Of a stretch of 64,000 nt of DNA, positions 54,670-57,979 are shown piece by piece. The stretch lies in the NCBI RefSeq assembly GCF_013315695.1, contig NZ_CP054353.1. One strand, 5' to 3'. The notes under the pieces were generated by a model that made no database searches, was not told where the DNA came from, and saw only the letters and a program-made list of their open reading frames with translations. Positions within the stretch are counted from its first letter, which is position 1, and each line of letters opens with the position of its first letter. The DNA comes from Escherichia coli. Lineage in GTDB: Bacteria > Pseudomonadota > Gammaproteobacteria > Enterobacterales > Enterobacteriaceae. The position numbers and the translations under genes are program-made.

Positions 54670-55075
54670 TACCACCTCTTAAAAAAATGCCCACATAGTG
54701 TAGTGCGGAGCGCATGTTGGGTAAACAGAGTGTTAATGAGAAAATATTACAGAGGAGAATAGTTTGTGTGTCAGGTATGTTTATTTTGCATTCATAAAAT
54801 GAATGCTCTATATGTTGAAAAAATTATTCTTAAAGCTAAATAGTTTTACATCAAAAGTAATAATATTATTTCTTGATTGCTATGTGCATTTTTTATCTTG
54901 CGAACATGCTATTTTTATCTCACTAAATAAACGATTTGGTGACATCGATGATAATGTTTCAGGTTAAATGTGTGCTTATTACTTGGGCCTTTATTGTACT
55001 GTATTTATTCATTAAATGGATGTTTGGTGGTTAATTATCATGGAAATATATGACAGAGAGAGCATAAAGGTATAC

Positions 55076-56011
55076 ATGTTAACTAAAAGAATATTATTTT
55101 CTTTAATGCTAATAGTTTCACCATGCGTGGTGGCAAGCGAGAAAGCGCATGAATTGTATGACAGCATATACGGTGGTCAACCTGCGCCCGATGTTATAAA
55201 TAGACTGCATAAAATGGCTGAATTGGGAGATGTCGACGCGCAGAGCCTGTTAGGCTGGGAATATTATCAGCCTCGCTTTGATACCAAACCTGATGTTCAG
55301 GAAGCGATTAAATGGTTTGAGTTAGCCGCTAAACACGGTGATAGAGAAGCTCCGTTAGCGCTGGGGAGTATCTACTACGACGGTGAGCTGGTGCGGGTGG
55401 ATTATGCCAAAGCGTATGCACTATTTAATCAGGCCGCGCAATACGGTGTGAATTTAGCATGGTCCAGGTTGGGCATGATGTACGCCAATGGTCAGTATGT
55501 TGAGGTCGATTGTAAGAAAGCGAAGGAATATCTTGATAAAGGTGTCCACATTTATGGTGGTCCGGAAGACTTTCTGGCTACATGTCGAAAAGACATGATT
55601 GACAGAAAAATGGTTGACGATACGTTACCCGTGATCACGGTTACCCGTTCTGGGATGCGGGATAATTTTTTAGATAAAGGTTTTTCCTGCATGGATAGCC
55701 TCTTCGCCACCACCAATAAATTAGGCGAAGTGGCCAATCTTCGCGTGACATTCAGCATTCGTAGCCCATCCGGTAAGGAGATTAACCAAACGGTTGGCTT
55801 CGCGCCTTTCGGTTTAAACCGGCTGAATATTAGCTTTACTGATTACATATTTGATTCATTTACCAGTAATTCGTCTCTAATTCTTTATAAACCGGAATTT
55901 GAGCGAAAATCTTGTGCAACTGTAAGGACCACAATCGTTGCCGCAACGGCAACCATTAACGGCAAGGATGTGGAGTTGCTGAAAGCGGGGGCAATTGAAC
56001 AAAAGTGGTAA
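55076..56011 (+). CDS. Secreted Sel1-repeat (SLR/TPR-like) protein with an uncharacterised C-terminal domain
   Basis: RBS AAAGG 6 bp upstream of ATG 55076; signal peptide MLTKRILFSLMLIVSPCVVA; repeated ...A..W...AA..G...A...LG..YY.G... Sel1 motifs; not part of the K-12 yajR-cyoE junction as I recall it. Confidence 0.7.
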   Translation: MLTKRILFSLMLIVSPCVVASEKAHELYDSIYGGQPAPDVINRLHKMAELGDVDAQSLLGWEYYQPRFDTKPDVQEAIKWFELAAKHGDREAPLALGSIYYDGELVRVDYAKAYALFNQAAQYGVNLAWSRLGMMYANGQYVEVDCKKAKEYLDKGVHIYGGPEDFLATCRKDMIDRKMVDDTLPVITVTRSGMRDNFLDKGFSCMDSLFATTNKLGEVANLRVTFSIRSPSGKEINQTVGFAPFGLNRLNISFTDYIFDSFTSNSSLILYKPEFERKSCATVRTTIVAATATINGKDVELLKAGAIEQKW

Positions 56012-56066
56012 CGCTGCTCAGTCCCCGGCTGAGGCAAAACTAGCCCTGGCCGGAGGCGATAATAAT

Positions 56067-56609
56067 CTAAGCCGCGAGAATATGCTGAATCGCTAAAAAC
56101 ATCGGTACAGCACCGAAAACATTGGGCCTCGCTGAAAGCTGAACAAAGCCGAGGCGAGTATAAAAGTTAATGGCGGCAGGGTCAGCATCAAGATAAACCC
56201 CTTTAATTGGTAATGCACGGTGAATTATTTTTACATGTTCAAAAAAATCACATAGTAGGTCCTGACCAAAGCCCCGCTTTTGATATTTCCGCGCTACCCC
56301 TAACATGACTAATCTGACAACACCAATCTCTGAAGGTTGTGAACCCTGAAGGACGCCAGAAACGCGTTGTTTTTCCAGCGAATATGCCGTAAAAGTACAG
56401 ATGCCAATCAGTTCACCACTTTGTCTGTCAATAAGAGCTTTAGCAGCACAGTCGCTATTACGCACACTTTTCTTTAGCGATGCGCGTACAAATTTATCGA
56501 TAACAGGGTTACCGCAATCAAACTGTTTTTGCCCAGGATAAGTAATATCAGACTGATAATTACAGGAGAGGACTATGGGCAGAGTAATCTCTTCATGCTT
56601 GTCGACCAT
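56067..56609 (-). CDS. GNAT-family acetyltransferase toxin (TacT/AtaT/ItaT-like type II toxin)
   Basis: 180-aa ORF with N-terminal FDCG motif (QKQFDCGNPVIDKF), cf. QRFDCGEEALN remembered from AtaT; GNAT acetyl-CoA signature (RGFGQDLLCDFFE); immediately downstream of and overlapping a DUF1778-type antitoxin. Confidence 0.75.
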   Translation of the reverse strand: MVDKHEEITLPIVLSCNYQSDITYPGQKQFDCGNPVIDKFVRASLKKSVRNSDCAAKALIDRQSGELIGICTFTAYSLEKQRVSGVLQGSQPSEIGVVRLVMLGVARKYQKRGFGQDLLCDFFEHVKIIHRALPIKGVYLDADPAAINFYTRLGFVQLSARPNVFGAVPMFLAIQHILAA

Positions 56610-56904
56610 CGCTGTTTTTCCTTTTCATTAACGCCTTGAGGGCGAGCGTCGGTTGAGCAGGTTCAGCGATGAGTTGGTTCATCAGTTCCCAGCTTTGATT
56701 CGAAAGCTCACGGCGACGTTGGTTATCAAGCACACTTTCGGCGCGTTCCATAGCTGCGCTCAAAATAAAAGCGCTTAAATCTACCCCAACGGCTTGCGCA
56801 GCTTCACGAAGTTTGTTTTTGGCGTCGGGACTGGTTTTGAGTTCAACCCGCGCATTTTTCAGCGTTTTATCGATATCGGGTAGAGCGACTGTTTTTCCAG
56901 GCAT
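56593..56904 (-). CDS. DUF1778 (RHH) antitoxin partner of the GNAT toxin (TacA/AtaR-like)
   Basis: 103-aa protein from MPGKTVALPDIDKTLKNARVELKTSPDAKNKLREAAQAVGVDLSAFILSAAMERAE...; RBS AGAGG upstream of ATG at 56904; ORF track start at 56970 is probably over-extended. Confidence 0.7.
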   Translation of the reverse strand: MPGKTVALPDIDKTLKNARVELKTSPDAKNKLREAAQAVGVDLSAFILSAAMERAESVLDNQRRRELSNQSWELMNQLIAEPAQPTLALKALMKRKNSDGRQA

Positions 56905-57052
56905 TATGACCTCTTTGATTAACTGAATGAAATCGTAGGGAGTCGATCTCATGCATAATACGGCTATCAACCGTGTGATTAATTTATGTGCATATGCTCA
57001 CTCTGTCAAGAGATACGGTTATTAGCCGTATCTCTGATCTCAGACAATAAAA

Positions 57053-57075
57053 AAGGTGCCGTAGCACCTTTTTTA
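57053..57075 (-). terminator. Rho-independent terminator of the cyoABCDE operon
   Basis: AAGGTGCCGTAGCACCTT hairpin flanked by A-run and T-run (reads as a terminator on both strands). Confidence 0.75.
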
Positions 57076-57088
57076 TAGAGAGGTTGTA

Positions 57089-57979
57089 TTACCACACAGC
57101 AGCCAGCAGCGTATGCGAGTTCGGCACCATAAAATCAACGGACATCATCACCGAGAGGGCAGTGATGGCGATGATAGAGAAGCCGAACAGCTTGCGCGCC
57201 CAGATTCGATCATCAGCAACTTTATAGCCGCGCAGAGCCATGCCTAACCACCAGACGCTCACCGCAGCGGCGACCACCAGATATTTATACCCAGCGTAGC
57301 CGCCAAGAGAGAGCATCAGCGTGGCAACGGCAAAGGCGATGATATACAGCGTGATGTGATTCTTCGCCACCGAAATGCCTTTCACCACCGGCAGTACCGG
57401 AATGTTTGCCGCCTGATAATCCTTAAAGCGGAAAATGGCGATGGCATAAGAATGAGGCATCTGCCACAGGCTGAAGATAGCCAGCAGGATCGCTGCGCCG
57501 CTATCGAACTCGCCGGTTACCGCACAGTAACCGATCACCGGAGGCGCAGCGCCGGAGAGCGAACCAATCAATGTGCCGTAGACAGAATGACGTTTCATGT
57601 ACAGGCTATAAACGCCGACATAAACCACAAAGCCCATCACCCCCAGCCAGCAGGCCAGCGGATTCGCGCCAAACCACAGCAGCATAAAGCCAGCAAAGCC
57701 TAGCAAGGTGGCGTACACCAGCGAGACAGCAGGAGAGATCAGGCCTTTAACCAGCACCCGATTCTTCGTCCTTTCCATCTTTCTGTCGATATCCCTGTCG
57801 ATGTAGTTGTTAAACACACAACCCGACGCCACAACCAGTGACACCCCAACCAGCGTGTAGATAAACAGGGGATAATCAATGCTGCCCTTTGAGGCCAGCA
57901 GGAATCCCCCAATCACCGAGATCAGGTTGCCAAAGATGATGCCTGGTTTCGTTACTTGCAGGTATTGCTTAAACATCAT
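57089..57979 (-). CDS. cyoE: Heme O synthase (protoheme IX farnesyltransferase)
   Basis: 296-aa protein from [25 protein letters not shown]... Confidence 0.95.

Follow-up and report, generated by a model that had tools for sequence, protein, structure and literature searches.

A candidate operator palindrome at the itaRT toxin-antitoxin promoter of Escherichia coli

The palindrome located upstream of the itaR-itaT toxin-antitoxin genes, in the 64-kb window examined (the whole stretch of Escherichia coli DNA that was analysed, 64,000 nucleotides), most probably represents O1, the upstream one of two operators through which ItaR-ItaT represses its own promoter. We give this reading a probability of about 0.88. 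An operator for the RHH/DUF1778 antitoxin had been among the proposals of the initial annotation, and this proposal was strongly supported by a sequence resembling the KacAT site, by a partner site across the promoter, by conservation in other genera and genomic contexts, and by the location of the palindrome inside a fragment repressed by ItaR plus ItaT. Judged from its sequence, O1 is a palindromic operator of a known class, that of the DUF1778 antitoxins, with a modest architectural twist, and the general understanding of the class is unchanged.

Two genes on the minus strand follow the palindrome. The first, itaR (56593-56904, 103 aa), encodes a ribbon-helix-helix (RHH) antitoxin of the DUF1778/TacA family (annotated as DUF1778; Pfam TacA1, E 1e-17; KacA, E 3.5e-11). 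The second, itaT (56067-56609, 180 aa), overlaps itaR by 17 nt and encodes a GNAT acetyltransferase toxin (Pfam GNAT), which matched PDB 7BYY with an E value of 1e-115 over 180/180 residues. The 7BYY structure is that of ItaT(G115D) from E. coli HS (PMC7367177), and this pair of genes is located at the same place in E. coli HS, between cyoE (57089-57979 in the window, minus strand) and yajR. The module was identified as the published ItaR-ItaT system on the basis of this match and of this shared position. Wilcox et al. (2018) cloned the region from -183 to -11 of E. coli HS itaR (172 bp) before galK, and the expression obtained was approximately 40-fold that of the promoterless control (PMC6125619). 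Expression was repressed to near background by ItaR plus ItaT, with either active or inactive toxin, and was not repressed by ItaR alone (PMC6125619). That study mapped no operator, promoter hexamers or start site for itaRT (PMC6125619), and no itaRT operator mapping was found in the literature searched. Alignment of HS to the window showed that the published fragment holds the cyo terminator, O1, both promoter hexamers and O2, with few base differences. The locus and the autoregulated promoter are therefore those of Wilcox et al. (2018), and the operator sites are assigned here computationally.

The palindrome had been described as a 9-bp perfect inverted repeat at 57010-57034, and was present there exactly, reading GAGATACGG-TTATTAG-CCGTATCTC on the plus strand. 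With the extra pair A57009/T57035 the repeat is perfect over 10 bp (arms 57009-57018 and 57026-57035) around an AT-rich centre of 7 bp, and the arms reach 13 nt if one mismatch is allowed. The candidate operator O1 comprises these 27 bp (57009-57035, no strand assigned; AGAGATACGG-TTATTAG-CCGTATCTCT), as defined by repeat finding and by the comparisons with the KacAT duplex and with homologous loci given below. Its conserved core is ATACGG-N7-CCGTAT, which covers 19 bp (57013-57031). The distances reported earlier also agreed with the sequence: 106 bp separate the palindrome from the itaR ATG (56904), where about 105 bp had been given, and 19 nt, as given, lie between it and the GGTGC stem of the cyo terminator. 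The distance to the full A/T-extended hairpin (57047-57076) is 12 nt.

A script counted all perfect inverted repeats in the 64-kb window that had arms of 9 bp or more and a loop of 3-10 nt, with dinucleotide-preserving shuffles as the control. Eight distinct repeats, corresponding to 19 nested hits, were found, compared with 2.6 +/- 1.9 nested hits in the shuffles, so one such repeat is by itself only mildly unexpected. The motif ACGG-N7-CCGT was present in exactly two copies in the 64 kb (0.95 expected), both in the 184-bp gap upstream of itaR and 55 bp apart. The presence of a second copy of the core in the same intergenic region argues that the palindrome is non-random.

This related palindrome was also returned by the repeat finder (ATACGGCTATCAACCGT at 56958-56974, 55 bp from ATACGGTTATTAGCCGT at 57013-57029). 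It forms the second candidate operator, O2 (56958-56976, no strand assigned; ATACGG-CTATCAA-CCGTGT on the plus strand), which was defined from the repeat finder, the homologue loci and the position of the KacAT site. A promoter scan predicted one sigma-70-like promoter on the minus strand, with TTGACA as the -35 (57009-57004), a 17-nt spacer and TAAATT as the -10 (56986-56981); TTGAC is conserved in homologues, and TAnAnT is found in them at the same distance. Read in the itaR sense, the order is O1, the -35 hexamer (which overlaps O1 by 1 bp), the spacer, the -10 hexamer, 5 nt and O2, which spans the predicted transcription start (~56974-56976). The two sites thus bracket the promoter, with O1 at the -35 and O2 on the predicted start. 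O1 has the promoter-region position of the operator class, adjoining the predicted -35 of an operon for a DUF1778 RHH protein and a GNAT protein. The initial annotation was correct regarding the palindrome itself, but had overlooked both O2 and the promoter hexamers directly adjoining the palindrome. The boxes of MetJ, NikR, TrpR, PurR and Cra are not known to match TACGG-N7-CCGTA. The arrangement of O1, -35, -10 and O2 provides a precise candidate map for the ItaRT module, the autoregulation of which has been known since 2018 without its sites.

The KacA4KacT2 complex of Klebsiella pneumoniae was crystallised on a 27-bp duplex, 5'-AAATGTACGGTTATTAACCGTACATGA-3' (PDB 5ZGN; Qian et al. 2019, PMC6698736), and the counterpart of this duplex in the window is AGAGATACGGTTATTAGCCGTATCTCT. 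Over the half-sites and the centre the two are identical at 16/17 positions (TACGG-TTATTAG-CCGTA in O1, TACGG-TTATTAA-CCGTA in the duplex), and both have the same 27-bp extent and an AT-rich centre, with two half-sites that fit one A4T2 hexamer. The duplex used for the crystal is an "adapted" form of the natural site (PMC6698736), and a near-identical KacA locus (99 %) carries TGTACGG-AAAATAA-CCGTACA. The match is therefore robust in the arms, and the identity of the spacer is partly an accident of the construct. In the KacA4T2 hexamer, R8, D10 and R12 of each RHH dimer make the contacts to one arm, and the minor groove is compressed at the centre (PMC6698736). When ItaR was aligned to KacA, R19, E21 and K23 were found at these three positions. 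R19 (KacA R8) was invariant in nine ItaR-clade and three KacA-clade proteins, E21 and K23 are conservative changes, and the strand KNARVELKTS was invariant in the ItaR clade. The residues of the base-reading beta-strand are thus conserved or conservatively changed in ItaR.

The kacAT and itaRT operons are of the same type, a DUF1778 RHH antitoxin with a GNAT toxin, and have the same TACGG/CCGTA half-sites, although ItaR is only ~33 % identical to KacA and ItaT is <24 % identical to the Klebsiella toxins. The outer base differs, being TGTACGG in kacAT and A/G-TACGG in itaRT. The arrangement also differs: in each of the three kacAT-type loci examined, one site spans the start immediately behind the -10, which is the position of O2, and no site is located upstream, whereas itaRT has the additional O1 upstream of the -35. 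This promoter-bracketing layout with two sites is a departure from the single-site kacAT model. Two sites for the toxin-antitoxin complex have also been described in the promoter region of tacAT of Salmonella enterica, at -81 to -46 and -46 to -6 from the ATG, and there too the complex was needed and not the antitoxin alone (VanDrisse et al. 2017, PMC5449658). The likeness between tacAT and itaRT was drawn from the positions of the sites; those of tacAT are adjacent and, unlike the itaRT pair, have not been reported to flank the -35 and -10. For ataRT of E. coli O157:H7 (Jurenas et al. 2019, as summarised in PMC8138530 and PMC6698736), which is likened to itaRT by mechanism only, an AtaR4AtaT2 complex with two antitoxin dimers flanked by toxin monomers is described as binding a palindromic operator tightly, and the antitoxin alone as binding weakly. 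To the extent of these summaries, the lack of repression by ItaR alone fits the AtaRT/KacAT model, in which the antitoxin alone is weak and the T-A2-A2-T hexamer is tight.

Ten loci with ItaR homologues were chosen by protein similarity alone, and none by DNA motif. Four originated from a protein-pattern scan with one genome per species (Pseudocitrobacter, Edaphovirga, Trabulsiella and Serratia; ItaR 63-86 % identical), and six from a protein database search followed by contig look-up (Klebsiella, Dickeya, Providencia, Salmonella, Xenorhabdus and an E. coli paralogue, 66 %). O1, in the form TACGG-N7-CCGTA placed three bp upstream of the -35, was present in 10/10 of these loci (11/11 with the window), and TTGAC followed the O1 core after 3 bp in 10/11, counts which were obtained from homologous loci of common ancestry and are not independent events. 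O2 was present in nine of the ten homologue loci (10/11 with the window), at 55-60 bp from O1 and just after the TAnAnT -10, and in Xenorhabdus only O1 was intact. An anchored alignment of the 11 loci showed conservation of TACGG, CCGTA, TTGAC and the -10, with an essentially random 17-nt spacer and random flanks, so the site is kept with the module while its surroundings drift. Only the Pseudocitrobacter locus had cyoE as a neighbour, and the other nine were in unrelated contexts. As a single homologue locus adjoins cyoE, the site travels with the toxin-antitoxin module and not with cyo.

A scan of metagenomes for the pair of sites returned 120 loci. ItaRT-like genes were located directly downstream in 16 of them (some with ItaR only 40-44 % identical), one further locus had a distant DUF1778 gene, and all 17 gene-bearing loci had the same layout. 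In these loci the fixed distance of 3 bp between O1 and the -35 was kept down to 40 % ItaR identity. They were selected by the motif itself, and for this reason serve as illustration and not as independent evidence. The other hits were mostly tandem repeats of G+C-rich TACGG/CCGTA units, apparently tyrosine/glycine codon repeats (frames unverified), or members of an AT-rich repeat family without nearby ORFs. Because most hits were repeats, the scan is no clean specificity test. For annotation purposes, TACGG-N7-CCGTA pairs 55-60 bp apart mark this promoter type.

The palindrome might instead have arisen by chance, or be a degenerate copy of O2, and be functionless in itself, with all regulation passing through O2 as in kacAT. 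About one or two perfect inverted repeats of 9 bp or more would be expected in 64 kb, and the O2-position site is the only one in KacAT-type promoters. A repeat without function would, however, be difficult to reconcile with a core that was invariant in all 11 protein-found loci between random flanks, with the retention of O1 as the sole site in Xenorhabdus, or with its fixed distance to the -35 in the motif-selected loci, and we consider this explanation very improbable.

Two further features were observed. The AT-rich family consists of pairs of longer palindromes (TTACATACGGATnnnATCCGTATGTAA) with the same TACGG/CCGTA core, some of them in arrays (L017, L032, L046, L047, L052, L054, L070, L073, L110 and L116). 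Nine of these loci originated from the metagenome samples Ga0123341/Ga0123342, and L116 from another contig series. Eight were checked, and most had no ORF of at least 50 codons starting within ~350 bp; those found in L017, L047, L054 and L073 were unconvincing. Secondly, most ItaRT-clade loci have a leader of 145-231 nt between O2 and the antitoxin start. All 11 leader loci (L006, 1288-1500; L008, 1301-1474; L129-L132 and L134, ~490-700; L016, L076, L095 and L108) contain a small ORF of 15-21 codons with its own Shine-Dalgarno sequence. This ORF ends with (F/V/Y/H)RC-x-x-stop in about 7/11 (for example MKFTANVFNLNRFRCIF and MRYFDNALNLNRFRCFL), other endings being found in L008, L095, L131 and L108. 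The same four loci lack the hairpin of the form GCGTAAGAAACACGC that precedes the ORF in the other seven. The product could be a leader peptide sensing translation. In the window locus, L005 and L007 the leader is short (~50 nt) and has no small ORF.

With O1 and O2 as operators, repression of itaRT could proceed as follows. By analogy with the KacA4KacT2-DNA and AtaR4AtaT2-DNA complexes, an ItaT-ItaR2-ItaR2-ItaT heterohexamer would place its two RHH dimers in successive major grooves, where they would contact the two TACGG half-sites on either side of the AT-rich 7-bp centre, the midpoints of the half-sites being 12 bp apart. O1 would lie at about -61 to -35, touching the -35, and O2 at about -2 to +17, so that the two sites, when occupied, would bracket the core promoter and exclude RNA polymerase, which would result in the negative autoregulation measured for this promoter. 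We infer direct binding of ItaRT to O1 and O2, as well as the stoichiometry of the bound complex and any cooperation of O1 with O2. As the published fragment also contains O2, this site alone could in principle account for the repression, and O1 is not obviously required, given that one site at the O2 position suffices in KacAT-type promoters. The spacing between O1 and O2 was 55-60 bp, and mostly 57 bp, which corresponds to ~5.4 helical turns. A simple in-phase loop is disfavoured, since the modal spacing of 57 bp is not face-aligned and the spacing varies.

It is conceivable, although we think it rather unlikely, that in the ItaRT clade the promoter-bracketing pair of ItaR4ItaT2 hexamers communicate, and that paralogous GNAT-RHH modules cross-regulate each other. 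ItaT-type toxins are active as dimers. If the hexamers communicate, their terminal ItaT monomers might associate with each other over the 55-60 bp that separate the sites, and the resulting clamp would be sensitive to the toxin ratio, a different basis of conditional cooperativity. As very divergent DUF1778 antitoxins share TACGG-N7-CCGTA, itaRT, ataRT and plasmid kacAT-like modules in one cell may cross-regulate their promoters. A TACGG half-site common to antitoxins of such low identity (~33 %) bears on cross-talk in many enterobacteria, which have several GNAT-RHH modules.

The length of the palindrome varies among E. coli alleles. The exact 57-nt sequence (at least 99 % identity over 56990-57046) was found in ~85 of 1,362 islet-bearing genomes (~6 %), and the outer GAG/CTC bases of the O1 arms were restricted to the same number, ~85/1,362. 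Position 57012 is polymorphic and differs in strains 165, DL21 and HS. In the common alleles O1 is ATACGG-N7-CCGTAT with an interrupted outer arm, and O2 is a perfect ATACGG-N7-CCGTAT. The outer arm is incidental, as its outermost bases are not conserved among E. coli alleles. Going by this allele comparison, the "9-bp perfect" appearance is partly incidental, and the functional unit is the 19-bp core.

This variation is relevant to a second proposal made for the palindrome, that of an extra terminator stem, which as RNA would provide further termination or insulation and halt read-through of the cyoABCDE operon, itself strongly expressed, ahead of the toxin-antitoxin promoter. The repeat, 12 nt past the cyo terminator, forms a fold of -15.2 kcal/mol (z = -5) when read as cyo-sense RNA. 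The stem is, however, followed by UUGACAGAG and not by a U-tract, the terminator scan made no call there, and the long stem is specific to the allele found in ~6 % of islet-bearing E. coli. In the other genera only 5-6 bp can pair, at loci which are not downstream of cyoE, and the partner site O2 showed no significant fold (z = -0.6). A terminator stem is very unlikely on these observations, and the proposal was not retained. Both strands were folded and scanned for terminators, and the combination typical of an intrinsic terminator, a G+C-rich stem with a U-tract directly after it, was not found at the palindrome. In an Rfam scan of 56500-57400 (E <= 1), only sub-threshold noise was obtained.

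O1, O2 and the promoter are part of an islet of 2.3 kb between cyoE and yajR (54740-57046, no strand assigned), as defined by alignments to islet-free strains, together with itaR, itaT and a Sel1/TPR ORF on the plus strand (55076-56011), the third islet gene. On the right the islet has a sharp edge, which directly follows the T-run of the intrinsic terminator hairpin of cyoABCDE (57047-57076, minus strand; A-run, GGTGC stem and T-run), the last sequence in common with islet-free strains, and homology to K-12 ends at ~57040-57046. The left edge, near yajR, is fuzzy (54740-54770). Among 5,419 E. coli genomes that matched the cyoE end, 1,368 had the full region and ~4,051 matched only from 57046-57049 onward. 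The initial annotation had suggested a comparison with the K-12 yajR-cyoE sequence, and had named the occurrence of the palindrome in islet-free strains as the finding that would count against it. The palindrome was absent from K-12, and from all islet-free genomes except one deletion derivative; it belongs to the islet, and the objection therefore does not apply.

The location of the palindrome only 11-12 bp inside the right edge, and the fact that the islet deletion in strain TR01 ends inside its left arm, might suggest that it is a boundary or recombination element of the islet, for instance a terminal inverted repeat or a site of the attachment type, remaining from the insertion. This was the third proposal for the palindrome, and we consider it extremely unlikely. 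No related sequence was detected at the left edge, or elsewhere in the window beyond the promoter pair, and the islet encodes only the Sel1/TPR protein, ItaT and ItaR, with no integrase or transposase. The same site, its partner and the promoter accompany itaRT homologues in unrelated genomic contexts, and the TR01 junction is a single event with a 2-bp microhomology. A terminal repeat or attachment site of a mobile element was also looked for by alignment of both edges to K-12 and by a motif search of the window, and no copy outside the promoter was found.

In TR01 (E. coli O157:H7, NZ_CP033605.1, ~516,74x-516,81x; L138, 2470-2545) the whole islet is deleted (2,274 bp). The junction corresponds to window positions 54739|57014, the microhomology being GA, and this arrangement was the sole case among 5,426 E. 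coli genomes. The O1 core TACGGTTATTAGCCGTA persists in this strain as an orphan site ~70 bp upstream of yajR. A Pseudocitrobacter MAG (L005, 424-3292) has the whole cyoE-itaR-itaT-Sel1/TPR arrangement, and the TTTTTTATTGTCTG junction after the cyo terminator, with identities to the window of 93 % for CyoE, 86 % for ItaR, 89 % for ItaT and 58 % for the TPR protein. As the arrangement is common to Pseudocitrobacter, the islet is either old at this site or moving with its flanks. The Sel1-repeat/TPR protein kept with the module in Pseudocitrobacter has 311 aa and an N-terminal signal-like segment in the window, where its gene is convergent with itaT. The ~100 bp upstream of yajR (window 54670-54770 compared with K-12, L001 3168-3260) were only ~65 % identical between islet-bearing strains and K-12, with flanking genes at ~93-97 %, which suggests an old polymorphism spanning the yajR promoter. 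One of the ~1,362 matches to the promoter region was on a record labelled as a plasmid and not as a chromosome.
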